This document shows positions 32,026-53,924 of a DNA stretch of 64,000 nucleotides, one piece after another. The stretch comes from an uncultured Chloroflexia bacterium. GTDB taxonomy: Bacteria > Chloroflexota > Limnocylindria > Limnocylindrales > CSP1-4. The stretch spans positions 214,489 to 278,488 of the forward strand of contig CAVTIO010000003.1 in NCBI GenBank assembly GCA_963734935.1. Direction: 5' to 3'. Position 1 is the first letter of the stretch, and each line of letters opens with the position of its first letter. The position numbers and the translations under genes were made by a program. The notes under the pieces were generated by a model. It had not been told where the DNA came from. It did not search any database and saw only the letters and a program-made list of their open reading frames with translations.

Positions 32026-32238
32026 ATGTACCAGGGACAACACTGGCTCGATGAACACAACGCGCGCCACGCTCGTGACGAGCGATCGCGCATCCACCTG
32101 CATCGCCAGGCCATCCGGGAGGCGCAGCAGGCGCGGCGGGCCTCGAGCCCCCTGCGTCGGCGCCTGGGCGGGTCGATCGTTCGACTCGGCCACCGCGTTG
32201 CCGGCGAGCAGCTCGGCTCCCCCGTCCTGACCGGCTGA
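32026..32238 (+). CDS. small basic hypothetical protein (70 aa) between the ABC ATPase and permease genes
   Basis: GGAGAG RBS 5 nt before ATG (MYQGQHWLDEHNARH...). GC3-biased. Start chosen as the internal M of the track ORF. Confidence 0.35.
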   Translation: MYQGQHWLDEHNARHARDERSRIHLHRQAIREAQQARRASSPLRRRLGGSIVRLGHRVAGEQLGSPVLTG

Positions 32239-32281
32239 GCCGGTCGGGGCGGGGGCCCACCAAACGCGAAAGGAACCAACG

Positions 32282-33085: not shown

Positions 33086-33086
33086 G

Positions 33087-36106: not shown

Positions 36107-36120
36107 CGTCCCGCCAGCCC

Positions 36121-36759: not shown

Positions 36760-36861
36760 AGGCTCAGTCTCGCACGGGTTGGGCGGTCCATCGAGATCCG
36801 GCCATCCGGCTCTCGGCGCGAGGCGAGCGACCGGCGCACAATGCGGCTGGAGGTGATCGGC

Positions 36862-37107
36862 ATGACCACACCGCGAATCCAGGCCAAGATCACCCCTTGG
36901 GACGACCCGGCCTTCGTCCGCGCGTTCGAGCAGGCCCGCGATGAGATCGAGCAGTCCGGCTGCTGCCCGGAAGGGCCCGAGGCCGCCTCCGAGGTCCAGC
37001 ACCGGCTCCGCCAGGGGGGCTATCCGAGCGCGAGCGTCGAGGTGATCCGGACGGCCCGGGAGGCGCTCGCGCACACCTCCCACTGGATCGTGACCCGGGA
37101 CGCCTGA
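36862..37107 (+). CDS. small hypothetical protein (81 aa) with CCPEGPE motif
   Basis: Strong GGAGGTGA RBS 5 nt upstream of ATG. GC3-biased codons. In the track it is hidden inside the 3' end of the artefactual 453-aa ORF 35746..37107. Stop is 4 nt from the coxG stop (convergent). Confidence 0.45.
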   Translation: MTTPRIQAKITPWDDPAFVRAFEQARDEIEQSGCCPEGPEAASEVQHRLRQGGYPSASVEVIRTAREALAHTSHWIVTRDA

Positions 37108-37110
37108 CCC

Positions 37111-37554
37111 TCAGCCGGCCTCGAGCTTGGCGCGGATGCAGTCGAACGTCTGACCGATCATCTTGTTCGCGGTGCCCTCGACCATCCGTGCGCCGACCGA
37201 GGCCAGCGTCCCGGAGATCGTGACGTCGGCGGACCAGTCCATCGTGGTCGGGCCCGCCTCGGCGCCCGAGAGGCGCATGTCCGCCGTCGCGTCGACCGCT
37301 GATCCGGGCGCCTGTCCGTGGGCCTTGAGCACCGCGAGCTCGGGCTCGGTACGCTCCGCCACGGTCATGTCGACCACGAACCGCGCCGAGATGAAGCCGA
37401 CGCCCACCTTCGCCTTGGCCTTGAAGTGATCGGCGTCGATCACCTCGATCGACTCCACGCCGGGCCCGCACGACCCGACCTGGTTGGGGTCCATCAGGAA
37501 GGCCCACACGCGGTCGCGTGGTGCGTTGATGTCGACGCTGCCCTTGAACTGCAT
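37111..37554 (-). CDS. coxG: CoxG-like SRPBCC protein (carbon monoxide dehydrogenase subunit G family)
   Basis: MQFKGSVDINAPRDRVWAFLMDPNQV... matches the CoxG/SRPBCC fold family. Start moved to 37554 with a GGAGA RBS. The track's 72-aa Arg-rich extension is rejected. Confidence 0.75.
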   Translation of the reverse strand: MQFKGSVDINAPRDRVWAFLMDPNQVGSCGPGVESIEVIDADHFKAKAKVGVGFISARFVVDMTVAERTEPELAVLKAHGQAPGSAVDATADMRLSGAEAGPTTMDWSADVTISGTLASVGARMVEGTANKMIGQTFDCIRAKLEAG

Positions 37555-37622
37555 ACCCTTGGATCTCCGTGCTGGTGGGTGGTGCCGGTGGCGACGCGGT
37601 GCCCGCCGCGCCGGGACCGCCC

Positions 37623-38666
37623 TCAGGCGTCGGCGGTGGCGGACCCAGTGACGTACGCGCCCGGCTCCTTGATGAACGCCGTTCGGCAGCCCATCGAGCA
37701 GAAGGCGTAGACGGTCCCCTCGTGCTCGGCGAGGTGCCGGGCATGCGCGCGGTCGACCGTCATCCCGCACACGGGGTCGAGAAGCACGATGTCGTCCACG
37801 ATCGGTGCCTGCTCCGGGCCCGGCTGTCCGGTCGCCTCACCGGCGACGGTTGCCGGGCCGGGTCGGGCGACGAACGCCGCGCGACCGCGCCGCACCTGGA
37901 CGAGCTCTCCCAGGATCGAGATCGCGATCTCCTCGGGTGTCTCCGCGCCGAGGTCGAGCCCGCACGGCGCCCGAAGCGCGGCCAGGCGATCCTCGGGGAT
38001 GCCCGCCTCATCGCGCAGCCATTCGCGCACGACGCGAGCTCGGGTCGGTGAGGCCACGAGGCCCACGTATGCGACGTCGCGTCGGAGCGCGGCCGCCAGG
38101 GCCTCCTCGTCCCAGACGCCCTGCGTCGCGACGACGACATGGGGCGAGAGCTCGGGGTCCACGCGCCCCAGCGCCGTGTCGCTCGACACCCGCTCGGCAT
38201 CGGGGAAGGCATCGGCGTCCGCGATCGGGTCGAACACGGATACCCGCCAGCCGGTCGCCGTGCCCAGCGCGGCCAGCGCGCCCACGATGGGTGTCGTGCC
38301 TGCGAGCCAGAGTGACGGCATCGGAAGGTGCGGTTCCACGTAGATCTCCAGGGTGCCCCCCGAGTGACAGGTCATGACCAGCTCGACGACGCCGTCGGCC
38401 CGGCGGCCCTCGGCCGGGCCGTCCTTCGACAGCCGGAGCAGCCGGGGATGACCGTCGACCAGCGCCCGCAGCGCCTCGCGGACGACCACCGGCTGGGCGC
38501 AGCTGCCGCCGACCCAGCCCTCGATCGTGCCGTCCGGATGGACGATGCCAGCCGACCCGGGACGGGCCGACGTCGGCCGCTGCACCGCGACGACCGTCGC
38601 GACCGCGAACGTCGAGCCCGTCGCCTCGAGCTCTGCGACCCGGCGGAAGACCGATCGTCCGGGCAC
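37623..38666 (-). CDS. XdhC/CoxI-family molybdoenzyme maturation factor fused to a C-terminal YHS (TRASH-superfamily) metal-binding domain
   Basis: XdhC_CoxI N-terminal domain (FAVATVVAVQ...GSAGIVHPDGTIEGWVGGSC) and XdhC_C Rossmann-like domain. C-terminal YHS motif DPVCGMTV...GTVYAFCSMGCRTAF (C-x22-C-x3-C) as found in Cu-ATPase N-termini. Confidence 0.8.
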   Translation of the reverse strand: MPGRSVFRRVAELEATGSTFAVATVVAVQRPTSARPGSAGIVHPDGTIEGWVGGSCAQPVVVREALRALVDGHPRLLRLSKDGPAEGRRADGVVELVMTCHSGGTLEIYVEPHLPMPSLWLAGTTPIVGALAALGTATGWRVSVFDPIADADAFPDAERVSSDTALGRVDPELSPHVVVATQGVWDEEALAAALRRDVAYVGLVASPTRARVVREWLRDEAGIPEDRLAALRAPCGLDLGAETPEEIAISILGELVQVRRGRAAFVARPGPATVAGEATGQPGPEQAPIVDDIVLLDPVCGMTVDRAHARHLAEHEGTVYAFCSMGCRTAFIKEPGAYVTGSATADA

Positions 38667-38669
38667 GGG

Positions 38670-41042
38670 TCAGGCCACGCCCTTCTCGTGCAGCACCTGC
38701 CACACCTTCTGGGGCGTGAACGGGATGTCGAGGTGGGTGACGCCGAGCGGCGACAGCGCGTCCACGACGGCGTTCGCGATGGCGGGCGGGGCACCCACGG
38801 TCGCGGACTCCCCCACTCCCTTGGCACCCAGCGGATGGTGCGGCGACGGGGTGATGGTCTTGGCCGTCTCCCAGGGGGGCGTCTCGACGGCGGTCGGCAG
38901 CAGATAGTCCATGAACGTGCCGGCGAGGTTGTTGCCGTTCTCGTCGTACGGGATCTCCTCCAGCAGCGACGGAGCGAATCCCATCGTCAGCCCGCCGTGG
39001 ATCTGCCCGTCGACGATCATGGGGTTGATGATGTTGCCGCAGTCATCGACCGCCACGAAGCGCCGGACGGTGACCTGCCCTGTGCCCTTGTCGATGTCGA
39101 CCACCGCCACGTAGCTCCCGAACGGGAAGGTGAGGTTCGGCGGATCGTAGTAGTCGACCGCCTCGAGCCCGGCCTCCATGCCCTCCGGGTGGTTGGTGTA
39201 GGCGGCGAACGCGAGCTCCGCGATCGTCTTGACCCGATCAGGCGAGCCTTTGACGCTCCACTGTCCGGGCGACCACTCGAGGTCGTCGGGCGAGCACTCG
39301 AGGAGGTGCGCGGCGAGGAGACGCGTCTTCTCGCGGATCTTGCGCGCGGCCACCGCGGTCGCAGCACCGGCGGTCGGGGTGGACCGCGAGGCATACGTGC
39401 CGAGGCCGTACGGTGCGGTGTCCGTGTCGCCCTCCTCGACCTTGACCTTGGACGCGGGGATGCCCAGCTCCTCGGCCACGATCTGGGCGAACGTCGTCTC
39501 GTGACCCTGCCCCTGGCTCTGGACGCCGAGGCGCACGATGGCCGAGCCCGTGGGATGGACCCGGATCTCGGCCGAGTCGAACATCTTGATGCCGATGATG
39601 TCGAACGTGTGCGAGGGACCGGCGCCGACGATCTCGGTGAAGCTGCTGATGCCGATGCCCATCAGCTCGCCCTTCGCGCGCTTCTCCACCTGCTCCTTGC
39701 GCAGGTCGTCGTAGCCGATCAGGTCGAGCGCCTTGCGCAGTGCCGTGTGGTAGTCGCCCGAGTCGTAGTCCCACCCGGTCGGGGTGTGGTACGGGAACTG
39801 GTCCTTCCGGATGAAGTTCTTCATGCGGAACTCGGCCGGGTCCATGCCCAGCTCGCCGGCCGCCTTGTCGACCAGCCGCTCGATCGTGTGGACGGCCTCG
39901 GTGACCCGGAAGCTGCAGCGGTACGCGACGCCACCCGGCGGCTTGTTGGTGTACGCGGCATCGACCTCGACGAACGCCTCCGGCACCTGGTAGCTGCCGG
40001 TGATGACGTTGAACAGGCCGGCCGGGAACTTCGACGGATCCGCGGCCGCATCGCTGTAGCCGTGGTCGGCTAGGGTCTTGACCCGCAGGCCGGTGATCGC
40101 GCCGTCGTTGCTCACGCCCAGCTCGGCGTGGATGTGGTAGTCGCGGGCAAACGAGTCGGCCTGGAGATTCTCGGACCGGTCCTCGATCCACTTCACCGGC
40201 CGGCCCAGCGTGAGCGACGCGACGATCGCGCACACGTACCCCGGGTAGACCGGCACCTTGCCGCCGAACCCGCCGCCGATGTCGTGCGTCTTGACGCGGA
40301 TGTCCGACTCGGGCACGCCCGACACGAGGCTGATCACCGTTCGATAGACGTGGGGCGCCTGGCTCGTGACGTGGAAGTCGAGGTGGCCGCGGACGGGGTC
40401 GAAGTCGGCGATGCAGCCGCAGGTCTCGATCGAGGCGACGTGGATCCGGGGGATGTACACATCGATCGGAACGACCCGATCGGAGCCGGCCAGCGCGGCG
40501 TCGGTCGCCGGCTTGTCGCCCGACTCCCAGTGCCAGATGTGATTGGTCTGCTTGTCCTCGCCGCGATCCGGACGCAGGATCGGCGCGTCCGGCTCGAGCG
40601 CCTTGAACGGGTCGACGACCACCGGCAGCGGTTCGTAGTCGACGTAGACCGCCTGGATCGCGTCGGCCGCCTGGTAGCGGGTCTCAGCGATGACCGCGGC
40701 GACCTCCTGGCTCTGATACATGACCGTGTCGACCGGCAGCACCATCTGCTTGTCGCCGGCCAGGGTGGGCATCCAGTGGAGGCCTGCCTTCTCGAGATCC
40801 TTGCCGGTGATGACCGCCAGCACGCCCGGCATCGCGAGCGCCTCGCTGGCGTCGATCGACTTGATCTTCGCGTGTGCGTACGGGCTGCGCACGATGTCCA
40901 TCCAGACCATGTTGGGCAGGACGACATCCTCGATGTACTCGCCCTGGCCGCGGATGAAGCGGGGATCCTCCTTGCGCTTCATCGAATGGCCCATGCCGCA
41001 GACCTCGGCGGTCGTGGTCGGTGCCTGTGCCTCCGTCATCAC
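38670..41042 (-). CDS. coxL: form I aerobic carbon monoxide dehydrogenase large (molybdopterin) subunit
   Basis: Form I-specific active-site loop VAYRCSFR (in KPPGGVAYRCSFRVTEAVH). N-terminal KRKEDPRFIRGQGEYIED. Aldehyde oxidase/xanthine dehydrogenase a/b hammerhead plus MoCo-binding domains. Confidence 0.9.
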   Translation of the reverse strand: MMTEAQAPTTTAEVCGMGHSMKRKEDPRFIRGQGEYIEDVVLPNMVWMDIVRSPYAHAKIKSIDASEALAMPGVLAVITGKDLEKAGLHWMPTLAGDKQMVLPVDTVMYQSQEVAAVIAETRYQAADAIQAVYVDYEPLPVVVDPFKALEPDAPILRPDRGEDKQTNHIWHWESGDKPATDAALAGSDRVVPIDVYIPRIHVASIETCGCIADFDPVRGHLDFHVTSQAPHVYRTVISLVSGVPESDIRVKTHDIGGGFGGKVPVYPGYVCAIVASLTLGRPVKWIEDRSENLQADSFARDYHIHAELGVSNDGAITGLRVKTLADHGYSDAAADPSKFPAGLFNVITGSYQVPEAFVEVDAAYTNKPPGGVAYRCSFRVTEAVHTIERLVDKAAGELGMDPAEFRMKNFIRKDQFPYHTPTGWDYDSGDYHTALRKALDLIGYDDLRKEQVEKRAKGELMGIGISSFTEIVGAGPSHTFDIIGIKMFDSAEIRVHPTGSAIVRLGVQSQGQGHETTFAQIVAEELGIPASKVKVEEGDTDTAPYGLGTYASRSTPTAGAATAVAARKIREKTRLLAAHLLECSPDDLEWSPGQWSVKGSPDRVKTIAELAFAAYTNHPEGMEAGLEAVDYYDPPNLTFPFGSYVAVVDIDKGTGQVTVRRFVAVDDCGNIINPMIVDGQIHGGLTMGFAPSLLEEIPYDENGNNLAGTFMDYLLPTAVETPPWETAKTITPSPHHPLGAKGVGESATVGAPPAIANAVVDALSPLGVTHLDIPFTPQKVWQVLHEKGVA

Positions 41043-41059
41043 AGCTCTCCTTCCGGGGC

Positions 41060-41575
41060 TCAGGCCGACGCCGCGGCGGCTTCGGACTCGGATTCAGCGG
41101 GCGCGGACCGGAGCTCGGCCGCGGCCTGCTGGACCGCCTTGACGATGTTCACGTAGCCGGTGCACCGGCACAGGTTGCCGGCGATGCCCTCGCGGATCTC
41201 CAGCTCGCTGGGATCCGGGTTCTGGCCCAGCAGCCAGCTGGTCTGCATGATCATCCCCGGCGTGCAGAAGCCGCACTGGAGGCCGTGCTGGTCGGAGAAC
41301 GCCTGCTGGAGCGGGTGGAGCGCTCCGCCCTGCTCCATGCCCTCGATGGTCGTGATCGAGGCTCCGTTCGCCTGGACGGCGAGCATGGTGCATGACTTGG
41401 CGCTGTTGCCGTTGACGAGCACCGTGCACGCGCCGCAGTTGCTCGTGTCGCAGCCGGTGTGGGTGCCGGTCAGGCCGAACACGTCGCGCAACAGGTGGGT
41501 AAGCAGGAGGCGGGGCTCGACGTCGGCCTCGCGGTCCTGGCCGTTGACGGTGACCGAGATGTGCTGGGTGGTCAT
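41060..41575 (-). CDS. coxS: CO dehydrogenase small subunit, [2Fe-2S] ferredoxin-like
   Basis: Plant-type cluster [11 protein letters not shown] and second cluster CGFCTPG...CRCTGY. Confidence 0.9.
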
Positions 41576-41589
41576 GACCGGGCCCTCCT

Positions 41590-42462
41590 CTATGCGCCCT
41601 GGGCCCGAGCCGCGGCCTGTCGCAGCGCCCGGATCGTGATCTCGCGGACCATCGCCCGCTTGTACTCGGCCGGCCCGTGACTGTCCGAGGCCGGACTCGA
41701 CTGCGCGGCTGCCGCCGAGCCCGCGGCGGCGAAGGCCTCCTCCGAGGGCGCCGAGCCGACCAGGCCCTCTTCCGCGTCGCTGGCGGCGAACGGGGCCTCG
41801 CTGACCGCCGTGAGCCCGATGCCGGCCGCCTCGACACGACCGTCCGCCCCGAGCGTCAATACCGCGGCGGCACCCACCGTCGCGAAATCGCCCGCCCGAC
41901 GCTCGAGCTTGACGTAGGCGCTGCCGGTCCGGGCCGGAGCCGCGGGCAACCGGACCTCGGTCAGCACCTCGGTGGGCTCGATCTCGGTCATGAACGTGCC
42001 GGTGAAGAAGCCGCGCGCCGGGAGTGTCCGCTCGCCGCCGCTGCTGCGGCAGATGAAGCTGCCGCGCAGGGCCTGGATCACCGCCGGCCAGTCCGAGCTC
42101 GGGTCAGCGTGCGCGCACGACCCGCCGATGGTGCCCCAGTTGCGGACCTGGGGATCGCCGATCCCCCCGGCCGTGTCGCGCATGATCGGCCACTGGGCAG
42201 CGAGGCCGTCGTGCTCCTGGATGTGGTGATGGGTCACGCGACCCCCGATGTGCCAGCCGTCGGCGGCCTGCGTGATGGCGCCGAGGCCGGTGACCGCCTG
42301 AAGGTCGACAAGGAGCGCCGGCTGCGCCAGTCGAAGCTTGAGCAGCGGCAGCAGGCTGTAGCCGCCGGACAGGACCTTCGCCTCCCCTTCCCGCTCCTGC
42401 AGGATCCGGAGGGCCTCGTCAAGCGATGCTGGCCTGACATAGTCGAACTGACCGGGAATCAT
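41590..42462 (-). CDS. coxM: CO dehydrogenase medium subunit, FAD-binding (PCMH fold)
   Basis: [18 protein letters not shown]...[19 protein letters not shown], a CoxM/XdhB-type FAD domain. Start moved to 42462. Confidence 0.85.
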
Positions 42463-42760
42463 GCGCTGCCTGCCCTCCTTCCCACGCCAGGGGACGCGGG
42501 ACCGATGTCGGGCCCGTCTTCGAGGGGACGGGCTCGGGGATGCCATGACAGTCGGTCGGCGGTCGTCGCCTCGGGCCGGCGAACGCCGCGTGGGCGGAGC
42601 CCACGGAAAGCTGCTTCTCCGAGTATCCGCGCGTGCCGACGAGGCGTCAATCAGGTGACGCCCGCGGTGCGGGAACGTTGCGGACGGTGAGCCTCACGCC
42701 CTGCGCAGCCGAAGACGCCGGGCTGCGGCCGACTGATCGTCCGGGCGTGCCAGGGGTGGG

Positions 42761-43630
42761 TCAGGCGCCGGGCGGGCTCCAGGTCACGATCCCCAGCGAC
42801 CCCGCCGATGGCATCGCGAGCGTCCAGGCACCGTCCCGCGACTCGGCGAGGTCGGGCAGGCGACGGAGCAGCTCGCGGTCCTTCTCGCCGCCCTCCGCGA
42901 TGAACAGCTGCCGGCGCAGGAACGCCGCCAGCGCGGTCATGGACTCGAACGAGCGGGCCGGGCGCTCCACCCGGATGACCTCGGTGTCTCGGCCACGCGC
43001 ACGCAACAGCGCAAGGAGCTCCACGAGCGCCGGCAGCGGAACCCGTTCCTCGCCGTGGATCAGCGGCCACAGGGGATCGACCAGCGACGCCGGGCTCCGG
43101 TCGGTGAGCACCGCGATGCAGTGCTCGCGCGCGGCGGCCTCCATGGCATCGAGGAACGGGCCGATGGGCTCGATGTCGTAGGCGACATGGGCGATCAGGG
43201 CGACGTCCGCCGCCGGCAGCGTGTCGAGCTGGGCGAGCGCGTCCGGCCAGGTCCCGGCCACCATCCGGATGTTGTCGATGCCGTGCTCGCTGATGCCCGA
43301 CTTGAGCGCCTGGCGCATGCCGGGCGACGGCTCGACGGCGATCACCTCGCGAATGGCAAGCGCCAGAGGGAGCGCATAGCGGCCGGCCCCGGCGCCGATG
43401 TCCAGCCAGACGTGGTCCGGGCGCGCCGTGGCCCGAAGGACGTCGAGCGCGGGCTCGTCGGTGCGCCTGGGATCGGACACGAACTGCGCCGTCACCGGGG
43501 CGTAGAAGTCAGCCAGCTGCGACTCGCGCAGGCGCTCGGCCTGCTCGCGGTTGGCCAGCACGCGCTCGGTCCACTCGGCTTCGAGCGGGTCGACGAGGGC
43601 GGTGGTCTCGGCTTCGGGCATGGGCCTCAC
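42761..43630 (-). CDS. class I SAM-dependent methyltransferase
   Basis: Motif I VWLDIGAGAGRYALPLA. Located between the two CODH gene sets. Overlaps the mocA stop by 4 nt. Confidence 0.7.
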   Translation of the reverse strand: MRPMPEAETTALVDPLEAEWTERVLANREQAERLRESQLADFYAPVTAQFVSDPRRTDEPALDVLRATARPDHVWLDIGAGAGRYALPLALAIREVIAVEPSPGMRQALKSGISEHGIDNIRMVAGTWPDALAQLDTLPAADVALIAHVAYDIEPIGPFLDAMEAAAREHCIAVLTDRSPASLVDPLWPLIHGEERVPLPALVELLALLRARGRDTEVIRVERPARSFESMTALAAFLRRQLFIAEGGEKDRELLRRLPDLAESRDGAWTLAMPSAGSLGIVTWSPPGA

Positions 43631-44217
43631 GATACGCCCGACAGCCGTTCCAGGTCGTCACGGGTATCGATGTCGGGGTTCGAGCCCGCGACCGCGACCT
43701 CCGCCACCAGGTCGGAGCGGGCGACGAGCAGCGCGCCGAGGCCACGGTCACCCACCAGGCCGGCCGCCAGCGCCCAGCCCGAGCGCTTGACGAGGACGGG
43801 ATTGGGGGCGTCGTCGTTCGCGTATCGGGCGCGCAGGAGCGGTTGCTCGGTGGTCACCGCCGCATCGATCACCGCGCGCACCACGTCGGGACGCAGCGTC
43901 GGCTGGTCGCCGAGCACGATCAGGGCCGCGTCGGCGGCGGGGTCCTCGGCTGCCGCGTCGAGACCCACGCGCAGCGAGCTCGAGAGCCCGTCCTGCGGTC
44001 GCGGGTTGACGGTCCGCCGTTCCGCTCGCCAGCGGATCGCCCTCTCCACCGTGTCGGCATCGGTGCCGAGCACGACGGCGACATCGGCCAGGCCGGCGAC
44101 GGCGAGCGCATCGAGGACGTGCTGGAGGACCGGCCGCCCGCGCAGCGGGGCGAGCAGCTTCTGGGACCCGAAGCGACTGGACGCTCCTGCGGCGAGGACG
44201 ACCGCGACGACGTTCAC
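43627..44217 (-). CDS. mocA: MobA-like nucleotidyltransferase, probable molybdenum cofactor cytidylyltransferase (MocA)
   Basis: MNVVAVVLAAGASSRFGSQKLLAPLRGRPVL matches the MobA/MocA N-terminus. Required for the MCD cofactor of CODH-family enzymes. Confidence 0.75.
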   Translation of the reverse strand: MNVVAVVLAAGASSRFGSQKLLAPLRGRPVLQHVLDALAVAGLADVAVVLGTDADTVERAIRWRAERRTVNPRPQDGLSSSLRVGLDAAAEDPAADAALIVLGDQPTLRPDVVRAVIDAAVTTEQPLLRARYANDDAPNPVLVKRSGWALAAGLVGDRGLGALLVARSDLVAEVAVAGSNPDIDTRDDLERLSGVS

Positions 44218-45362
44218 CCGGGGGCTGCGTCCGGGCCGCGCGCGAGGGCGCGCCCGTCCCGGGCACGTGCGAGGTCGCGCATCGGCTGCCCGGTTCCGGC
44301 ACGCCGCTCGGCGACGATCTCGGCCATGATCGCGAGCGCCGTCTCGGCCGGCAGGCGGCCGCCGAGGTCGAGACCGATCGGCCCCCGCAGTCGGTCCAGC
44401 TGCGCCTCGTCCACGCCCACGTCCTTGAGCCGCGCCCGTCGATCGGCCTGCGTCTTGCGCGACCCGACAGCTCCCACGTACCGACAGCCGCGGCGCAGGG
44501 CCTCGACGATCGCCGGCTCATCGAACTTCACGTCATGGGTCAGGACCGCCACGGCGTCGGCCGGCCCGAGTCCGATCTCGTCGGCGACCTCGTCGGGCCA
44601 GCCCACGATCAGCCGGTCAACGTCCGGGAACCGCGCCTCGGTCGCGAACGCCGCCCGGCCATCCACGACCACCGTCTCGTAGCCCAGCTCGCGCGCGAGG
44701 TGCACCAGCGATCGCGCCACCTCGACGGCGCCCACGACGACCAGCCGCGGGCGGACCGGGTAGGCCTCGATGAACAGCTGCCGGCCAGCGATCTCGACGG
44801 TCCTCGATACTCCCTTGGCGAGCGCCGCCGTCGCCGCGCCGGACAGCTCCGCGTCGGCAGCCTGATCGCCAAGCGTGCCGTCGACCCGACCGTCATCGTG
44901 GACCACCAACGGTTCGGCGGCCGTCCCACCGCTGCCGGGCTGGTGGGCGCCGAAATCCGGCGGCGGCGAGTCCGGCGGCAGAGGCGTGACGATCGCCCGC
45001 CCGTCGCCGCGGCCCTCGTGCGTCTCGCGGGCGGCGGTGATCGCCACCTCGGGCACCCGGGGCGAGATCAGGACGTCGATCGTGCCCCCGCACGCGAGCC
45101 CGACATCCCATGCCTGCTCGTCGCTGATGCCGTAGCGGATCACTCGCTCACGACCCGATCGTCGGGCCTCCCGGATCTCCTCGGCCGCGGCCCCTTCCAC
45201 GCAGCCACCCGAGACCGAGCCCGCAAGCCTCCCATCGTCGGTCACCAGCAGGACGGCGCCTTCGGGCCGCGGCGCGCTGCCAAAGGTGCGTACGACGACG
45301 GCCCTGCCTATCCCGGCACGCTCGGCACGCCAGGCATCGAGCGAGTCAAGCAGCTCCTGCAT
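44214..45362 (-). CDS. XdhC/CoxI family molybdoenzyme maturation factor (second paralog, no YHS domain)
   Basis: XdhC_CoxI N-domain (RAVVVRTFGSAPRPEGAVLLVTDDGRLAGSVSGGCVEG) plus XdhC_C domain. Confidence 0.8.
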   Translation of the reverse strand: MQELLDSLDAWRAERAGIGRAVVVRTFGSAPRPEGAVLLVTDDGRLAGSVSGGCVEGAAAEEIREARRSGRERVIRYGISDEQAWDVGLACGGTIDVLISPRVPEVAITAARETHEGRGDGRAIVTPLPPDSPPPDFGAHQPGSGGTAAEPLVVHDDGRVDGTLGDQAADAELSGAATAALAKGVSRTVEIAGRQLFIEAYPVRPRLVVVGAVEVARSLVHLARELGYETVVVDGRAAFATEARFPDVDRLIVGWPDEVADEIGLGPADAVAVLTHDVKFDEPAIVEALRRGCRYVGAVGSRKTQADRRARLKDVGVDEAQLDRLRGPIGLDLGGRLPAETALAIMAEIVAERRAGTGQPMRDLARARDGRALARGPDAAPG

Positions 45363-45386
45363 CGTGGCTCCTTTCGATCGTGAGGG

Positions 45387-46796: not shown

Positions 46797-46798
46797 GG

Positions 46799-47752
46799 CT
46801 AGGCCTGCGCCGTCGCCTCGGCGAGGTACTGCTTGGCGACGTTGCCGCGCACCTGGCGGATGTCCTCCTCGTACTTGAGCACGACACCCAGCGTCTCATC
46901 GACCATGTCCGGGGCGAGCTCGGTGGCACCCAGCGACAGCAGCGCGGCCGCCCAGTCCAGTGTCTCGGCCACGCCCGGCACCTTGGTCAGATCGGCCTGG
47001 CGCAGCCGGTGGACGAACGACACGACCTCGCGCGCCAGCCGCGGCGGGGCGCCGGGCACGCGGGTAGCCACGATCTCGAACTCCTTGCTCGCGGTCGGGT
47101 AGTCGATCCAGTGGTACAGGCAACGGCGCTTGAGCGCGTCGTGGACCTCACGTGTGCGGTTGGAGGTGAGCACCACCCGCGGCGGCTGATGGGCGGTGAT
47201 GGTGCCGATCTCGGGCACGGTGACCTGGTAGTCCGACAGGATCTCGAGCAGATACGCCTCGAACTCCTCGTCGGCGCGGTCGATCTCGTCGATCAGCAGG
47301 ACCGGCGCGTTGCCGTCGGTCGCTTCGAGCGCCTGGAGCAGCGGCCTTTTCAGCAGGAAGTCAGGCCCGAAGATGTCGTGGGCCGACGCCTGGGCGATCT
47401 CGCCGCGCGCCTCGAGCAGCCGGATCTCGAGCATCTGGCGCGGGTAGTTCCATTCGTAGACGGCGGTGTTGACGTCGAGCCCCTCGTAACACTGGAGCCG
47501 GATCAGGCGGGTATCGAGCGTGGCGGCCAGGACCTTGGCAAGCTCGGTCTTGCCCACCCCCGCCTCGCCCTCGAGCAGCAGCGGGCGGCCGAGCTCGAGC
47601 GAGAGGAACACCGTCGTTGCGAGCGATCGCTCGGCGATGTACCCCTGCTTGCGGAACGCCTCGGTGAGGCCCTCGATCGAACGAGCGGCCTCGGGAGAAG
47701 CGGGCGCCGGGCTGACGGATGAGCTGGCGGAAACGGGCGGATCAGGCTCCAT
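46799..47752 (-). CDS. coxD: MoxR-type AAA+ ATPase (CoxD-like)
   Basis: Walker A GEAGVGKT, Walker B LLIDEIDRA, and sensor motifs of the MoxR family. Start moved to MEPDPPVSA at 47752. The track's 114-aa extension is rejected. Confidence 0.85.
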   Translation of the reverse strand: MEPDPPVSASSSVSPAPASPEAARSIEGLTEAFRKQGYIAERSLATTVFLSLELGRPLLLEGEAGVGKTELAKVLAATLDTRLIRLQCYEGLDVNTAVYEWNYPRQMLEIRLLEARGEIAQASAHDIFGPDFLLKRPLLQALEATDGNAPVLLIDEIDRADEEFEAYLLEILSDYQVTVPEIGTITAHQPPRVVLTSNRTREVHDALKRRCLYHWIDYPTASKEFEIVATRVPGAPPRLAREVVSFVHRLRQADLTKVPGVAETLDWAAALLSLGATELAPDMVDETLGVVLKYEEDIRQVRGNVAKQYLAEATAQA

Positions 47753-47874
47753 GCTTGGCGATGCTACACCGGCGGAGCGCGGTCGCACCGCGACCAGAGC
47801 GCCGTCGCGCCATCGCGACCGGACGGGTGGGACCCCGGGGCACCATGGGCGATCTCGCCGGGCGCCGACCGGGC

Positions 47875-48942
47875 TCAGCCGTCGGGAGCCGCGAGCTCCT
47901 GTGCATAGGCGGGGAACCGGAACCGCTGGCTGCGGGTCAGGATGCCGCCGTGGCCGAGGCGTGAGACCGTCTGCAGGGTCGGCGGCTCTCCGGTCAGGAG
48001 CCGGGGCAGCAGCAAATCGGCCGCGGTCGCCTTGGAGTAGGCGCCACAGGTCGGCAGCCCGAGCACCGCCGTCCGCCGCGCCCGTCCCAGCCACAGCATC
48101 GATCCCGGATGAGCCGGCACGCCCCGGCGGATGATGCGGCCGCCGACCCGTTCCAGCGCCATGAACAGCGGATCACCCGGATCCGTGGAGCGGCCGCCGG
48201 CGGTGAGGACGATGTCGACGGCAGCTGGTCCACGGGTCAGACGGTTCAGCACAGCCACCACCGCGTCGATCTCGTCGGGAACATAGTCGAAGCCGGTCAC
48301 GAGGGACCCGAGCGGCTCGACCTTGTCGCGCGCGCTGCGCTCGAACCGGGCGCGGTTGGCGGCCCGGATCGACTCCTTGACAAGCACGGCCACCCGGCGG
48401 CCCACGAACGGCGCCACCCAGACCAGCGGGCGCGTCCCACCACGCGTGTGCCGAACGCCGGCCTCGACCACCGCCTCCGGAACCACGTGCGGCGCGACCT
48501 TGGCCGACGCCACCAGCTGGCCGGCGGCGACCACCGAGCCGTCGAACGCCGTGAACACCTCGAGCGGATCGATCCGGTTGAGCAGCTCGAGCTCGCGAAC
48601 CCGGACATGCAGGACGCCGTCCGCGGCGGCCAGCAGATCGACGCGGCTCTCGCCCGGGCCGCGCTGGACCAGGCCCGATCCACCAACAGCGGCGGCAAGG
48701 CGCAGCGCGGCCTCGTCCTCGTGCAGGTCGCCGGGCTCGAGCACGAGCACGGTGACGGGGCTGACCGCGGCACCGGAGGCCACGTCGGGCGTGCCCGACC
48801 CGGCCCACGCGTCGAGGTCCGCCGCCGTCAGGCGACGGCCCTTCGACCAGCGCTGTCCACCCACGTGGAGGTCGCGTGCCAGCACGGCCCCCGCAAGGTG
48901 GCCGGGCGGGCGGCGGCCCGGGACGATGTGCTCGAGCCGCAC
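47875..48942 (-). CDS. molybdopterin-binding (MoCF biosynthesis/MoeA-CinA-like domain) protein associated with the CODH cluster
   Basis: C-terminal MoCF_biosynth-like segment VDIVLTAGGRSTDPGDPLFMALERVGG. Position matches the MoCF-binding gene found in form II CODH clusters. Confidence 0.6.
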   Translation of the reverse strand: MRLEHIVPGRRPPGHLAGAVLARDLHVGGQRWSKGRRLTAADLDAWAGSGTPDVASGAAVSPVTVLVLEPGDLHEDEAALRLAAAVGGSGLVQRGPGESRVDLLAAADGVLHVRVRELELLNRIDPLEVFTAFDGSVVAAGQLVASAKVAPHVVPEAVVEAGVRHTRGGTRPLVWVAPFVGRRVAVLVKESIRAANRARFERSARDKVEPLGSLVTGFDYVPDEIDAVVAVLNRLTRGPAAVDIVLTAGGRSTDPGDPLFMALERVGGRIIRRGVPAHPGSMLWLGRARRTAVLGLPTCGAYSKATAADLLLPRLLTGEPPTLQTVSRLGHGGILTRSQRFRFPAYAQELAAPDG

Positions 48943-48964
48943 CCCTGGTTCCGAGCCTGCTCGC

Positions 48965-49825
48965 CTAGCCCAGCCGGGCCAGGGCAGCCCGGATGGCCCG
49001 GCCGGCGATCACGCCGGCCATGGCCGACCGGTATTCGGCGGACGCGTGGATGTCGGCGTTCACCGTGCGACCACCGACGACCGCCGCGGCAGCAGCCGCG
49101 ACGTCCGCGTCGCCCGCCGTGGTACCGGTGAGCGCCGCCTCGGCCTCGGTCGCGCGGTAGGGATGCTCCCCCACCCCGGTGACGCCGATCCCGGCCCACA
49201 GGACGTGGTCGTCAGGGCCGAAGATGAGCACGGCTCCCACGCCGACCATCGGGTAGCCCGACGCGGGCTGCTCGAGGCTGACGTAGGCGGAGCCCGCGTT
49301 GTCGAGCGGTTTCGGCAGGACGACCCGCGTGAGCAGCTCGTCCTCGCTCATGATCGTCGTGAACGGCCCGGTGAAGAACCCGTCGGCCTTGACCGTCCGC
49401 GTCCCCGATGCGGACTGGAGGACCAGATCCGCGTCAAGCGCAAGCGCGACGGCTGCGAAGTCCGAGGCCGGGTCGGCGTGCGCGATCGCACCACCGACCG
49501 TCCCCCGGTTCCGCACCTGGACGTCGCCGATGGTCGGCAGCGCGTCCCTGAGCAGGCCGTAGGGGGCCGCTGAAGAGTCCGCGAGCTCCGAGTACGTGGT
49601 GAGCGCGCCGATGGACAGTCGGCCGTCGTCGAGCCGCTCCACCCCCCGCAACTCGCCCAGGCGGCCGATGTCGACCAGCGTCCCGACCGACGCCAGCCGC
49701 AGCTTCATGAGCGGCAGCAGGCTCTGGCCGCCGGCGATGACCTTGGTTCCGTCGCCGGATGCGAGCGCCCTGAGCGCCTCGTCGAGGCTGGCAGCCCGGG
49801 TGTACTCGAACGAAGCCGGGATCAT
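48965..49825 (-). CDS. FAD-binding medium subunit of form II CODH-like molybdoenzyme
   Basis: [21 protein letters not shown]...VIAGGQSLLPLMKLRLA. ATGA overlap with the large-subunit stop. Start moved to about 49825. Confidence 0.85.
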   Translation of the reverse strand: MIPASFEYTRAASLDEALRALASGDGTKVIAGGQSLLPLMKLRLASVGTLVDIGRLGELRGVERLDDGRLSIGALTTYSELADSSAAPYGLLRDALPTIGDVQVRNRGTVGGAIAHADPASDFAAVALALDADLVLQSASGTRTVKADGFFTGPFTTIMSEDELLTRVVLPKPLDNAGSAYVSLEQPASGYPMVGVGAVLIFGPDDHVLWAGIGVTGVGEHPYRATEAEAALTGTTAGDADVAAAAAAVVGGRTVNADIHASAEYRSAMAGVIAGRAIRAALARLG

Positions 49826-52245
49826 GCCTGACCTCCCTTCGCGGAGCCGTTGCCATCGGACGCCGCCTGGATGGCGCCCCACACCTTCTGGGCGGTGTAC
49901 GGCATGTCCAGGTGACGGATGCCCAGCGGGCTCAGCGCGTCGATCACGGCGTTTGACACGGCGGCCGTGCTGGCGATGCAGCCGGCCTCTCCGACGCCCT
50001 TGACGCCCAGTGGGTTGACGGGTGACGGTGTCACCGTCTCGTCCAGCTCGAAGCTGGGCAACCACGACGCCCGCGGCAGCGCGTAGTCGAGCATCGAGCC
50101 CGACAGCAGCTGCCCGTCATCGTCGTACACCGCGCCCTCCCAGAGCGCCTGGCCGATGCCCTGGGCGATGCCGCCGTGGAGCTGGCCGTCGACGATCATG
50201 GGGTTGATCTTCTTGCCCACGTCGTCCACCGCGACGTAGCGAACGAGGTCCACGACGCCCGTCTCCTCGTCGATCTCGACGATCGCGATGTGGGTCCCGA
50301 ACGGGAACGTGCAGTTCTCGGTGTCGTGGTAGGCCGTCTCGTCGAGATACGGCTCCATGCCGGGTGGGGTGTCGAACGCCAGGTCCAGCGCAAACGCGAT
50401 CTCCTGGAGCGTCTTCTTCTTGTCGGGCGAGCCCTTGACCCGGTACTCGGCGCCATCGATCTCGATGTCGTCCGGGCTCGCCTCGAGCATGTGGGCCGCG
50501 TAGCGTTTCGCCTTGTCGCGGATCTTGGCCGCCGCCTTGAGCGCCGCTCCGGTGCCCACGTTCGACGTCCGTGATCCATACGAGCCGTAGCCGAACGGCG
50601 TGCCCTGCGTGTCCGAGTGCTGGACGACGATGTCCTCCATCGGCACCCCGAGCTCGTGACTGACGATCTGGGCGTACGTCGTCTCGTGGCCCTGGCCCTG
50701 CGGCTGGGTGCCCATGGTGACCACGACCTTGCCGGTGAGGTGGACCTTGATGTTGGAGGACTCCCACATCGCCGCCCCCCAGCCTTCGCCGACGGCGCCG
50801 ATCCACTTCGAGGGCGCGACGCCGCAGACCTCGATGTAGGTCGAGAGCCCGACGCCCAGCAGCTTGCCGCGGCCCTTCGCGTCGGCCTTCTTCGCGGCCA
50901 TGTCCGCGTAGCCGGCCATCGCCAGCGCCTTGTCCATGGCGGGCTCGTAGTTGCCCGAGTCGATGTACAGCTTGCTGCCGTTGACCGCGGTCAGCAGCCC
51001 CGACGGGTTGTCGTAGGGGAACGAGTCCGGCGGCAGGAAGTTCCGGCGCCGGATCTCGGCCGGGTCGATGCCCAGCTCGTCAGCCACCAGGTCCATCGCT
51101 CGCTCGACGACATAGGTGGCCTCCGGTCGGCCGGCGCCGCGGTAGGCGTCCACGAACGTGGTGTTGGTGTAGACGCCGGTGACCTCGCAGAAGACGTTCG
51201 GGATCTTGTATGGCCCCGACAGGATCCGGCCATAGAGGGTGGTCGGGATGCCGGGCCCGATCGTGGACAGGCGGCCGCCCAGGTTGGCGTACGTCTTGAC
51301 GCGGAGGCCCTTGACCTCGCCATCCTTCGTGGCCGCCGCCTCGAGGTACGTGATGTGGTCGCGGCCGTGGATCGTGCTCTGGTAGTTCTCACGGCGCGTC
51401 TCGACCCACTTGACGGGCCGGCCACCGATGAGCTTGCTGGCGAACAGGACGAGCGCCATGTCCGCGTAGCAGAAGATCTTGGTGCCGAAGGCGCCGCCGA
51501 CGTCGGGGCTGATGCAGCGGAGCTTCTGCTCCGGGATGCCCATGGTGAAGATGCCCACCAGCAGGCGCTGGATGTGGGGCGTCTGGCTGGACATCCAGAT
51601 CGTGTACTCGTCGGTTCCCGGGTTGTACCAGCCGATATCGCCGCGAACCTCCATCGGGTTCGGGATCAGCCGCTGGTTCACCACGCGTTGGCGGACAACG
51701 ACCTCGGCGCCATCGAAGGCTGCCTCGGTGCCGTCCTTGTCGCCCACCGACCATTCGAACACGATGTTGTTGGGGGCGTTCTCGTGGAGCTGCGGGGCTC
51801 CCGGCTGGGTGGCCTTCTCGGCGTCGACCACGGTTGGCAGCGGCTCGAAGTCGACCTGGATCAGCTCCAGGGCATCGACCGCCTGCTCGGGCGTCTCGGC
51901 CACGACCGCGGCCACCCCCTCGCCTGTCCACTTGACGTCGTCCGTGGCGAGCACGCGCGGCGTGTTGGTGTTGTTCTGGATGCCCGAGGCACCGCCGGCC
52001 GGCCAGGCCATCGGCAGCGGGTTGTACGGGATGTCCGCCCCCACCACCACCGCGATGACGCCCGGGGCGGCCCTGGCGGCGCTGGTGTCGATCGAGCGGA
52101 TGTTGGCGTTCGCGTACGGGCTTCGCAGGATGGCCATGTGGACCATCCCCTGGAGGCTGATGTCGTCGAGGTAGCGGCCCTTGCCGGTGATGAAGCGCGG
52201 GTCCTCGACCCGCTTGACCGGAGCGCCCAGGACGTCGGTGGTCAC
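49822..52245 (-). CDS. form II CODH-like molybdopterin large subunit (xanthine dehydrogenase family, substrate unknown)
   Basis: Form II active-site loop AYRGAGR (in VDAYRGAGRPEATYVVERAMD) replaces the Cu-ligating AYRCSFR. 807 aa, with the full XDH-family domain set. Confidence 0.9.
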   Translation of the reverse strand: MTTDVLGAPVKRVEDPRFITGKGRYLDDISLQGMVHMAILRSPYANANIRSIDTSAARAAPGVIAVVVGADIPYNPLPMAWPAGGASGIQNNTNTPRVLATDDVKWTGEGVAAVVAETPEQAVDALELIQVDFEPLPTVVDAEKATQPGAPQLHENAPNNIVFEWSVGDKDGTEAAFDGAEVVVRQRVVNQRLIPNPMEVRGDIGWYNPGTDEYTIWMSSQTPHIQRLLVGIFTMGIPEQKLRCISPDVGGAFGTKIFCYADMALVLFASKLIGGRPVKWVETRRENYQSTIHGRDHITYLEAAATKDGEVKGLRVKTYANLGGRLSTIGPGIPTTLYGRILSGPYKIPNVFCEVTGVYTNTTFVDAYRGAGRPEATYVVERAMDLVADELGIDPAEIRRRNFLPPDSFPYDNPSGLLTAVNGSKLYIDSGNYEPAMDKALAMAGYADMAAKKADAKGRGKLLGVGLSTYIEVCGVAPSKWIGAVGEGWGAAMWESSNIKVHLTGKVVVTMGTQPQGQGHETTYAQIVSHELGVPMEDIVVQHSDTQGTPFGYGSYGSRTSNVGTGAALKAAAKIRDKAKRYAAHMLEASPDDIEIDGAEYRVKGSPDKKKTLQEIAFALDLAFDTPPGMEPYLDETAYHDTENCTFPFGTHIAIVEIDEETGVVDLVRYVAVDDVGKKINPMIVDGQLHGGIAQGIGQALWEGAVYDDDGQLLSGSMLDYALPRASWLPSFELDETVTPSPVNPLGVKGVGEAGCIASTAAVSNAVIDALSPLGIRHLDMPYTAQKVWGAIQAASDGNGSAKGGQA

Positions 52246-52256
52246 GTCGTCCCTCC

Positions 52257-52763
52257 TCAGGCCGTCGCGGTCGCGGCTGCCGGGTCGGCAGGCTCGCGGA
52301 GCATGCGGGCAGCCTCGGCCACGGCGAGCACGATGTTGTGGTAGCCGGTGCAGCGGCAGATGTTGCCCTCGATCGCGTGCCGGATCTCCGTCTCGCTCGG
52401 CTCCGTGTCACGGGCCAGCAGGTCGGCCGCGGCCATGATCATGCCCGGCGTGCAGAACCCGCACTGCAGCCCGTGCTTGGCCCAGAAGGCCTGCTGGAGC
52501 GGGTGGAGGTCGTCGCCTGCGGCCATCCCCTCGATCGTCGTGACCGAGCTACCGTCGGCCTGCGCCGCGAGCATCGTGCAGCTCTTGATCGCGTGGCCAT
52601 CGACGTGAACCGTGCACGCGCCGCACTGGCTCGTGTCGCACCCGACGTGCGTACCGGTCAGTCCGAGATCCTCCCGCAGGACCTGGACGAGGAGCCGCCT
52701 TGGCTCGACATCCACCTCCCTTGGCTCGCCGTTCACCTCGAGTGCCACATGCAGCTCGGTCAC
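52257..52763 (-). CDS. [2Fe-2S] small subunit of the form II CODH-like enzyme
   Basis: [11 protein letters not shown] and CGFCTPG...CRCTGY. Start set to the GTG ([12 protein letters not shown]) with an AAGGAGG RBS 8 nt upstream. The track's 43-aa extension is rejected. Confidence 0.85.
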
Positions 52764-52913
52764 GGGGACGACCTCCTTTCCCCCGTCGAGCGGGGGTCGC
52801 GACGTGGGTGCGGCGCCCGACCGCTGATCGCCCTTGGGGTCAGCCGCGCGGACGGTGAGCCGGATGGTGGCACCGTGACGTCGTCGGCGCAACCCGGTTG
52901 CAGCGCGTGATGC

Positions 52914-53924
52914 CTAGGGCGTCTCGCCACGACCTCGGCGCCGGTTGGCACGACCGTGGCCGGTGGCGAAGCTCCGCGGGTCGAGGCCCTCGGCCACGGC
53001 GTCCGCGGGCGCCATGACCGCCAGCCGCGCCGCGCGGGCGAGCGTCGCCAGTGCCTCCTGCGCGGCGACGGGCGTCAGGAGGTGCAACGACGACGCGTTG
53101 GCGAGTCCGACCCGGCTGGGGCCGCGACCCTTCGACGAGGCCGCGTAGCGGGCCGCCCAGTCGAGCGTCGGTCCCGGGTCCCCGCGGGCGGGCACCTCGA
53201 GCGCGGCGCACACGATGCCGCGATCGCCCGGTGCCGCCCTGACCAGGTACCAGTTGTCGGGACCAGAGATAAGGTCGAACAGATACGAGCTGTAGGGCGC
53301 GGACAGGATCGCGTCCGTGCCGGCCTCCCATGCGGAACCACCCTGGATGACGAGCATCGCGTGGAGCTCGCGTGCCTCGGCAAGGAGCGCGGATTGAGCG
53401 GCCGCGAACAGCTCGCGCTCGGCATCGTCGTTGCCGATGGCCGTCGCGTCAGGCTCCTCCACGTGGACCATCGGGCACCCAGCGGCGTGCAGCGAACCCA
53501 GCTGCCTCGCGAGACGACCGGCCAGCTCGAGCGTGATCTCGGCTCGTGCCTCCGGGTCCTGCCCCTCGGTCCCCCGCCGCCCGAGCGAGTACGGACCCGG
53601 GATGACCTGGGCGACGGTCCGCTCCGTCAACACCGCGGTCTCCCGCCAGGCGCGCGTGATCGGGCCGTCGGCGCCAAGGTCGTCGGCGTGGACCGCGCGG
53701 AGAACGGCGGCGCCGGGATCGGCGCTCCTCACCTGGCCATCGGTGACGAGGTCCAGGCCGGCCGCCTCCTGGGCGCGCACGGCCTCCGCGACCAGCGTCT
53801 CGATCGTCGATTCCAGGCGGTCCCGGGCGCCGGCGTCTCCGGTCGCCGCGGCCGCCTCGAGCGACGCCACGTCGAGCCCCTCGGCTGTCGTCCGCGGCCA
53901 GCGGCCGCTGAGCATCGCGAACAC
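52914..53924 (-). CDS. cobalamin-independent methionine synthase (MetE) C-terminal-domain-like protein (UROD/MetE fold)
   Basis: LVTDGQVRS and GCPMVHVEEP resemble the IxDGE and IQIDEP regions of the Meth_synt_2 family. Immediately upstream of, and co-directional with, the form II CODH genes. Confidence 0.6.
   Translation of the reverse strand: MFAMLSGRWPRTTAEGLDVASLEAAAATGDAGARDRLESTIETLVAEAVRAQEAAGLDLVTDGQVRSADPGAAVLRAVHADDLGADGPITRAWRETAVLTERTVAQVIPGPYSLGRRGTEGQDPEARAEITLELAGRLARQLGSLHAAGCPMVHVEEPDATAIGNDDAERELFAAAQSALLAEARELHAMLVIQGGSAWEAGTDAILSAPYSSYLFDLISGPDNWYLVRAAPGDRGIVCAALEVPARGDPGPTLDWAARYAASSKGRGPSRVGLANASSLHLLTPVAAQEALATLARAARLAVMAPADAVAEGLDPRSFATGHGRANRRRGRGETP

Follow-up and report, generated by a model that had tools for sequence, protein, structure and literature searches.

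Form I carbon monoxide (CO) dehydrogenases account for much of the removal of CO from the atmosphere. They are separated from form II enzymes by a sequence motif (AYXCSFR in form I versus AYRGAGR in form II) and by gene order (coxMSL versus coxSLM) (PMC13203968, PMC7645674), and an identity of at least 55% to a reference CoxL is used as a criterion for form I (PMC6794299). The function of the form II "CO dehydrogenase" enzymes is an open question in the field (PMC13203968, PMC6794299). On plasmid pHCG3 of Oligotropha (Afipia) carboxidovorans, the form I cluster coxMSLDEFG has its own coxD, coxE, coxF, and coxG, all located after coxL, and CoxD, CoxE, and CoxF are each essential for an active [CuSMoO2] site (PMC4240915). 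Thermogemmatispora sp. T81 (Ktedonobacteria) carries a coxMSLIG operon, in which the structural genes are followed by an XdhC-family gene and coxG without coxDE (PMC6776052). Form II clusters on Azospirillum lipoferum 4B plasmid AZO_p3, a Ralstonia solanacearum megaplasmid, and a Halobaculum plasmid show the order S-L-M with an AYRGAGR motif, followed by genes for a MoxR ATPase, a von Willebrand factor A (VWA) protein, and XdhC. Here we describe a locus from an uncultured, Limnocylindria-like soil bacterium of the Chloroflexota (contig CAVTIO010000003.1) in which a form I and a form II-type enzyme are encoded around one accessory gene block. The whole stretch of 64,000 nucleotides that was analyzed is referred to as the window.

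Fifteen co-directional genes on the minus strand span positions 37111-53924 of the window, which has a G+C content of approximately 70%; from 53924 down to 37111, all real genes lie on this strand. The locus consists of three separable modules, and the backbone that carries them is conserved (rhomboid - MetE-like - ... - CoxG - metallo-β-lactamase [MBL] hydrolase). Module A is a copper-free form II-type molybdenum hydroxylase (S2-L2-M2) with a molybdopterin-binding protein. Module B, for maturation, comprises CoxD, CoxE, XdhC, MocA, and an S-adenosylmethionine (SAM)-dependent methyltransferase. Module C consists of coxM-coxS-coxL-coxF, the cassette for the form I Mo-Cu CO dehydrogenase, very probably under a sigma70-type promoter of its own. 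Genes were called with Pfam and NCBIfam scans, and their starts were refined by inspection of start codons and ribosome-binding sites (RBSs) and by comparison with homologs, including those of a 91%-identical relative. The genes named in a preliminary description of this DNA were all recovered on the minus strand, close to or exactly at the positions first assigned to them, with starts now placed at 52763 instead of 52892 for S2 (168 amino acids), 49825 for M2, 47752 for CoxD (317 amino acids), 42462 for CoxM, and 37554 for CoxG (147 amino acids).

The likenesses to described systems are distributed over the modules. The window shares with pHCG3 the coxM-coxS-coxL order, the AYRCSFR motif, an XdhC-family CoxF, and CoxG (identities of 58.6% for CoxL, 62% for CoxS, 43% for CoxM, 41% for CoxF, and 54% for CoxD). 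In contrast to pHCG3, its coxD and coxE lie upstream of the structural genes, are of a form II-linked type, and stand beside a form II enzyme, and its CoxF carries a YHS domain that the CoxF of O. carboxidovorans lacks. The T81 operon, compared by its published description, resembles the window cassette in that structural genes, an XdhC-family gene, and coxG are present and coxDE is lacking, but neither a neighboring form II enzyme nor an accessory block was reported for it (PMC6776052). The Azospirillum, Ralstonia, and Halobaculum clusters match the S-L-M genes and the MoxR-VWA-XdhC block, whereas they have no form I cassette, and the MocA-adjacent methyltransferase was found only in Limnocylindria-like loci. 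Finally, the form I clusters of Deinococcus sp. AJ005 plasmid p380k and Paraburkholderia aromaticivorans plasmid pBN2 also encode a protein combining XdhC_CoxI, XdhC_C, and YHS domains, but unlike the window they have MoxR and VWA genes of their own beside coxL.

By every sequence-based test that we ran, the window encodes a genuine form I CO dehydrogenase. Its structural genes encode the flavin adenine dinucleotide (FAD) subunit CoxM (290 amino acids, 41590-42462; PF00941 and PF03450; RBS GGAAGGAGGG), the [2Fe-2S] subunit CoxS (171 amino acids, 41060-41575; PF01799 and PF00111), and the Mo-Cu large subunit CoxL (789 amino acids, 38670-41039), all on the minus strand. The start of CoxL is more likely the ATG at 41039 than the annotated one at 41042, as judged from a 100%-identical database protein of 789 amino acids. 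CoxL contains the motif VAYRCSFR, scored 1214.1 bits on the TIGR02416 equivalog model (cutoff, 991.15), and, in comparisons with solved structures, exceeded 1000 bits for four form I enzymes, including 1ffu, 1n5w, and 8uem, versus 478 bits for quinoline oxidoreductase. Its identity to the O. carboxidovorans CoxL (WP_013913730.1) extended over 789 amino acids and lies above the 55% rule, and Cys376 aligned with the Cu-ligating Cys388 of that protein. In a neighbor-joining tree rooted with Escherichia coli XdhA, CoxL fell in a form I clade with 100% bootstrap support, together with the CoxL proteins of Afipia (OM5), Pseudosulfitobacter, Paraburkholderia, and Deinococcus. The preliminary description had assigned this protein to form I from its VAYRCSFR motif, which lies within GGVAYRCSFR, and from the M-S-L order, which runs here from 42462 to 38670, and had named phylogenetic placement outside form I as a refutation; the tree places it inside form I, and the TIGR02416 and Protein Data Bank (PDB) matches bear out the same assignment. 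We infer that the organism is able to oxidize CO.

The second enzyme is encoded upstream, at 52763 to 48965 on the minus strand, in the order small, large, and medium subunit: S2 ([2Fe-2S] subunit, 168 amino acids, 52257-52763; PF01799 and PF00111; GTG start, RBS GGAAAGGAGG), the molybdopterin large subunit L2 (807 amino acids, 49822-52245), and the FAD-binding subunit M2 (286 amino acids, 48965-49825; PF00941 and PF03450), the ATG start of which overlaps the L2 stop by 4 nucleotides. Its earlier assignment to form II was borne out by the DAYRGAGR motif, the gene order, the TIGR02416 score, and the tree. L2 scored 742 bits on TIGR02416, under the cutoff of 991, and was below all NCBIfam equivalog cutoffs; the nearest solved structures were form I enzymes (600 to 690 bits). 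Gly370 of L2 occupies the position of the Cu-ligating Cys388, and the equivalents of Gln240 and Glu763 are retained. In the neighbor-joining tree, L2 belonged to a clade with 100% bootstrap support composed exclusively of AYRGAGR proteins, including those of Azospirillum and Halobaculum. This clade was sister to form I in a tree that had E. coli XdhA as the sole outgroup and did not include the literature's reference form II accessions. S2 and L2 were 63% and 47% identical to the Azospirillum form II S and L subunits, respectively. Next to M2 lies a gene for a molybdopterin-binding protein with a MoCF_biosynth domain (355 amino acids, 47875-48942, minus strand; PF00994), which had no match in a PDB sequence search. 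The gene follows M2 in the relatives and in form II clusters of Gemmatimonadota and Thermoanaerobaculia and thus travels with the form II genes.

Between the two enzymes, module B encodes a CoxD-like MoxR AAA+ ATPase (317 amino acids, 46799-47752; PF07728), a CoxE-like VWA protein (469 amino acids, 45387-46796; PF05762 VWA_CoxE, E value of 1e-57), an XdhC/CoxI-type molybdenum cofactor (Moco) chaperone (382 amino acids, 44214-45362; PF02625 and PF13478), a MocA-like molybdenum cofactor cytidylyltransferase (196 amino acids, 43627-44217; PF12804, E value of 2e-29), and the SAM-dependent methyltransferase (289 amino acids, 42761-43630; PF13649 and PF08241), all on the minus strand. CoxE is encoded directly 3' of CoxD. 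The preliminary description had proposed one set of maturation genes as a candidate for sharing by the two enzymes, and these coxD and coxE genes are indeed the sole ones in the 64-kilobase (kb) window. CoxD was 54% identical to the CoxD of Afipia/Oligotropha (pHCG3) and 60% identical to the form II-linked MoxR of Azospirillum. The best matches of XdhC were form II-linked XdhC and CoxI, not CoxF. The MocA-like protein scored 111 bits on TIGR03310 (cutoff, 186), and the methyltransferase gave only generic class I methyltransferase matches in the PDB. Among the loci compared, the methyltransferase was seen only in Limnocylindria-like ones. In one of these (L084:7030-8454), MocA (NTP_transf_3) and the methyltransferase are fused into a single protein of 474 amino acids; in the window, the two genes (42761-44217) overlap by 4 nucleotides. 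The fusion suggests a role for the methyltransferase in biosynthesis or maturation of the MCD (molybdopterin cytosine dinucleotide) cofactor, in which we know of no methylation step.

A second XdhC-family gene was found at 37623-38666 on the minus strand, 3 nucleotides after coxL (347 amino acids; PF02625, PF13478, and PF04945). The preliminary description had noted this YHS-fused gene as a second xdhC following the form I genes and had spoken of one shared maturation gene set. The gene is present, but it is an ortholog of coxF, is specific to form I, and travels with coxMSL; the maturation set is therefore not wholly shared. Its best reference match was O. carboxidovorans CoxF (40.6% identity, E value of 5e-45), compared with an E value of 6e-12 for CoxI. 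CoxF has been described as an XdhC-family protein with an XdhC N-terminal motif, a Rossmann domain, and a putative Cu-binding motif (PMC4240915). The C-terminal YHS/TRASH domain of the window protein has the motif CGM...FC..GC, which is conserved in the lineage, and the same fusion occurs in the Deinococcus and Paraburkholderia form I clusters (L086:7901-8962 and L090:11054-12109). The form I cassette of the lineage is always accompanied by CoxF-YHS. The domain, a putative copper-binding one, is probably the copper-handling part of CoxF. In our literature searches, which were incomplete, we found no paper that mentions a YHS domain alongside either CoxF or CO dehydrogenase. Downstream, CoxG is an SRPBCC protein (147 amino acids, 37111-37554, minus strand; PF06240, E value of 1e-33) with 28% identity to O. 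carboxidovorans CoxG. CoxG acts as a quinone shuttle in Mycobacterium smegmatis and is also associated with family members other than CO dehydrogenases (PMC12202499); in relatives without form I, its gene is kept right after the methyltransferase gene.

The distribution of the modules was examined in approximately 90 comparison loci (prefix L), comprising 80 species-representative CoxD-centered loci, six CoxL-centered loci, and plasmid reference clusters, with E. coli XdhA as the outgroup; these were mapped by tblastn with the window proteins. The closest proteins and loci came from metagenome-assembled genomes (MAGs) labeled Candidatus Limnocylindrales/Limnocylindria or Chloroflexota. Modules were counted in species-level Limnocylindria-type loci with contigs covering both flanks. 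Both enzymes stood beside CoxD-CoxE-XdhC in seven loci in addition to the window, with L032 probably being another. Form II alone was present in four or five loci; in four of them (L006, L017, L018, and L026), the methyltransferase gene is followed directly by coxG. Form I alone was present in L049 (and in L084 and L096, with partial upstream coverage), and neither enzyme was present in six loci. CoxD-CoxE-XdhC was retained in all of the counted loci. The co-localization of both enzymes with one CoxD-CoxE-XdhC set, first noted for the window, thus recurs in at least eight other species-level genomes and in two gene orders, each of which holds exactly one CoxD/CoxE set. The second order is represented by L098:8591-22360 (PNAP01000081.1), in which coxM-S-L-F-G is followed after a 2-nucleotide gap by S2-L2-M2-MoCF (with 4-nucleotide overlaps) and, after a 433-nucleotide gap, by CoxD-E-XdhC; in this locus, the structural genes of the two forms seem to share an operon. 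L032 and L085 resemble this order. Block-only loci included L002, L003, L025, and L035, among others; in L002, the block is flanked by genes for an anti-sigma factor and a PGA_cap protein. A Sinorhizobium meliloti locus (L095; CP090106.1, 1981413-1998294) likewise has a MoxR-VWA-XdhC(split)-nucleoside triphosphate (NTP)-transferase block with no molybdoenzyme structural genes within 8 kb.

Identities to the form I large subunit, L2, and CoxD of the window track together across relatives (91/90/88% for L057 and 80/82/80% for L040; for L084, 81% for the form I large subunit and 80% for CoxD), which suggests that the three modules were long co-inherited and then lost piecemeal rather than recently transferred. 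Two loci carry what look like remnants of form II deletions. In L096, an open reading frame (ORF) of 156 amino acids with only the C-terminal CO_deh_flav_C domain (L096:964-1434) occupies the M2 site before MoCF, the block, and form I, and L049 keeps MoCF without S-L-M. In relatives lacking form I, loss of the cassette is favored over insertion in the others, because the modules diverge proportionally and because of the M2 remnant in L096; the methyltransferase-coxG spacer itself is not decisive, with coxM promoter remnants that were inconsistent among these relatives and clear only in L018. One MAG (JBJMMH01) contributed two contigs (L009 and L042), on each of which form I genes come after a copy of the CoxD block, possibly through strain heterogeneity or duplication. 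Its isolate name ("12C16O_48h_50_P13...") suggests a CO incubation or isotope probing, which, if published, would be direct evidence for CO use in the lineage.

The organization of the locus bears on how it is transcribed. The preliminary description had presented the whole range as a single cluster in which nearly all junctions were tight except for one gap of about 300 nucleotides. Ten of the 14 junctions are indeed 24 nucleotides or less, three of them being 4-nucleotide overlaps, but four gaps are larger (150, 122, 298, and 68 nucleotides). On the form II side, the distances were 150 nucleotides (MetE-like to S2), 11 (S2 to L2), an overlap of 4 (L2/M2), 22 (M2 to MoCF), and 122 (MoCF to CoxD). 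Those of the accessory block were 2 (CoxD to CoxE), 24 (CoxE to XdhC), overlaps of 4 (XdhC/MocA and MocA/methyltransferase), and 298 (methyltransferase to CoxM), and those of the form I side were 14 (M to S), 17 to 20 (S to L), 3 (L to CoxF), and 68 (CoxF to CoxG). A promoter scan revealed, in the methyltransferase-coxM gap, a sigma70-like promoter, TTGACG-17-GATACT, at 42622-42650 on the minus strand. The scan gave 3 matches versus 0.6 expected in the region covered, and this one (42650-42622) was the sole minus-strand match in 19.5 kb. The same element was found upstream of coxM in every relative examined. In an alignment of 11 sequences, including L085, where the upstream neighbor differs, TTGAC and the A and T of the -10 element were essentially the sole invariant columns of the intergenic region. 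On this evidence, transcription of the form I cassette very probably starts from a promoter of its own. Searches for TTGAC-N16-18-nAnnnT detected no conserved promoter upstream of coxD (48 relatives) or form II coxS (22 relatives). An Rfam scan of the whole window gave a tRNA gene at 12186-12270 on the plus strand as its sole match at the gathering threshold, and hence no Moco or other riboswitch in the coxM leader of approximately 150 nucleotides or in the other gaps.

One long polycistronic operon from 53.9 to 37.1 kb, expressing both enzymes and all accessory genes, would be consistent with the shared direction of the genes and the many short junctions. No intrinsic terminator was detected on the minus strand, and when the four larger intergenic gaps were folded, their stability did not exceed that of shuffled sequence (z scores of -1.65 to +0.8), so that read-through from upstream into the form I cassette is possible. 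However, the promoter within the 298-nucleotide gap is conserved, the modules are lost independently, and the 122-nucleotide MoCF-CoxD junction (47753-47874) is an insertion hot spot, where relatives carry 0.6 to 8.6 kb of unrelated genes (L001, L048, L015, L037, L024, and L053); in a 91% relative (L001:750-3357), these include an extracytoplasmic function (ECF) sigma factor gene and two unknown genes. A single operon is thus very unlikely. The locus is probably not one transcript, and its initial treatment as one single unit has to be given up in view of the conserved promoter and the insertion hot spot.

In our preferred reading, which we consider somewhat probable, module B matures both enzymes, CoxF-YHS adds the copper step, and CoxG provides coupling. 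MocA would make the MCD cofactor, and XdhC, CoxD, and CoxE would deliver or insert it and sulfurate it for both enzymes, the steps being supplied by a single module B. CoxF-YHS, encoded in and moving with the form I cassette, would perform a copper-specific step for form I only, and CoxG, kept with either enzyme, would couple the soluble enzyme or enzymes to membrane quinone. We infer both the action of module B on the two enzymes and the division of labor between module B and CoxF. Sharing is plausible because there is one CoxD/CoxE set in the window and because loss of either enzyme leaves the block in place. Moreover, none of the six CoxL-centered loci of this lineage has a form I cassette with its own coxDE, such as accompanies form I in Afipia, Deinococcus, Paraburkholderia, and Pseudosulfitobacter, and O. 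carboxidovorans, the model organism, requires both CoxD and CoxE (PMC4240915).

Several observations weigh against sharing. In a neighbor-joining tree of 89 CoxD proteins, the window CoxD belonged to a clade (bootstrap value of 90) of proteins adjoining AYRGAGR enzymes in Chloroflexota, Gemmatimonadota, Acidobacteriota, and Alphaproteobacteria (Azospirillum), and it may therefore be specialized for form II. CoxD proteins linked to form I in Afipia, Pseudosulfitobacter, Paraburkholderia, and Deinococcus lay outside this clade, so that the window CoxD does not group as their ortholog, in a tree that relied on this one method, contained few form I references, and had some weak deep nodes. CoxD, CoxE, and XdhC were all nearer to their counterparts in the Azospirillum form II cluster than to the CoxD, CoxE, and CoxI/CoxF of pHCG3. 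Since CoxD groups with form II-linked proteins, module B is apparently, by descent, the accessory set of the form II cluster, and form I is apparently borrowing it. With an independent promoter, moreover, expression of form I need not match that of module B. A second coxDE pair may lie elsewhere in the genome, outside the window with its single pair, and the T81 operon indicates that form I may not need adjacent coxDE (PMC6776052). Block-only loci, in the lineage and in S. meliloti, show that the clients of the block can be encoded at other sites; by the same token, form I could depend on genes located elsewhere. The ancestry of the block, the separate promoter, the T81 operon, and the MoxR-VWA-XdhC genes that form II clusters of other phyla carry as their own would all fit a mere juxtaposition, in which module B is form II's own set and form I matures by CoxF alone or with CoxD/CoxE-like proteins encoded elsewhere. 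We regard juxtaposition as rather unlikely: the block is intact right beside form I where form II has been lost (L049, L084, and L096), and both the lack of form I-specific coxDE in the six CoxL-centered loci of the lineage and the requirement for CoxD and CoxE in O. carboxidovorans speak against it. Alternatively, module B may be a general trans-acting maturation system for several MCD-containing xanthine oxidase-family molybdoenzymes across the genome, with the adjacent pair being two clients that are not specially related. The six relatives that keep the block with neither enzyme adjacent, such as L002, and the stand-alone S. meliloti block agree with this explanation, which overlaps with shared maturation instead of excluding it. 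Both enzymes nevertheless recur beside the block in two gene orders, including the 2-nucleotide coxG-S2 junction of L098, which argues for selection on the linkage of the three modules, and we consider a general system with unrelated clients to be improbable.

A more specific form of shared maturation can be offered only tentatively, and we hold it to be somewhat doubtful. The single form II-descended CoxD-CoxE-XdhC-MocA set would mature both enzymes, with CoxD and CoxE acting on a common step (Mo sulfuration or opening of the active site) and not on copper insertion; CoxF-YHS would be the sole copper-specific factor. If this is true, the coxG-form II coxS junction of L098 would further imply that the form II enzyme acts in the same physiological program as CO oxidation, for example, in starvation or in the respiration of trace gases, with CoxG as the quinone shuttle of both enzymes. 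The arrangement thus hints at a physiological tie between form II function and CO oxidation. The locus thus bears on two open questions, the mechanism of CoxD and CoxE and the function of form II. The lineage provides natural genetic variants with both, either, or neither enzyme around the same accessory block; the segregation of CoxF-YHS with form I makes a division of labor in maturation of the Mo-Cu site testable; and coxMSLF plus coxDE-xdhC-mocA would be the fewest genes needed for heterologous expression. Members of the Ellin6529/Limnocylindria class abound in soils, and the class has been predicted to oxidize atmospheric CO (bioRxiv 10.1101/2020.08.06.239558). Earlier work has thus already reported CO dehydrogenase from it. 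The parts of the locus all belong to known families, and it is the arrangement, not the kind of system, that is new. We found no paper describing adjacent form I and form II clusters in the literature searched, which was incomplete. The recurrent linkage of form I and form II around one accessory block descended from form II, the occurrence of the two enzymes as modules that may be present or absent, and the segregation of CoxF-YHS with form I appear to be undescribed there.

Upstream of S2, the range covered by the preliminary description also holds a gene that it left undescribed (336 amino acids, 52914-53924, minus strand). This encodes a protein resembling cobalamin-independent synthase (MetE-like), with a weak match to PF01717 (Meth_synt_2; E value of 6e-7) and no match in a PDB sequence search. 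It is a conserved flank, not a cox gene: it lies upstream even in relatives without form II genes, such as L049, L038, and L067, and serves as a synteny anchor. On the other side of the locus, plus-strand genes at approximately 31.1 to 35.3 kb encode an ATP-binding cassette (ABC) transporter, an RsgA GTPase, and a GNAT acetyltransferase and are conserved with a relative. A minus-strand ORF of 1682 amino acids (30125-35173), which overlaps these genes and has no Pfam match, is almost certainly a shadow ORF arising from the high G+C content. A plus-strand ORF of 453 amino acids (35746-37107) that overlaps the MBL gene is likewise spurious. The MBL-fold hydrolase gene itself (36121-36759, minus strand, with an uncertain start possibly as far up as 37083; PF00753) lies downstream of CoxG in most relatives and is on the opposite strand in L001. 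The hydrolase (36121-37083) gave weak matches to glyoxalase II and persulfide dioxygenase-like proteins. A haloarchaeal form II cluster (L092:13639-14832) also has an MBL-fold gene, which adjoins TusA/DsrE/YeeE sulfur transfer genes; a sulfur-handling role of the hydrolase in Mo sulfuration is conceivable.

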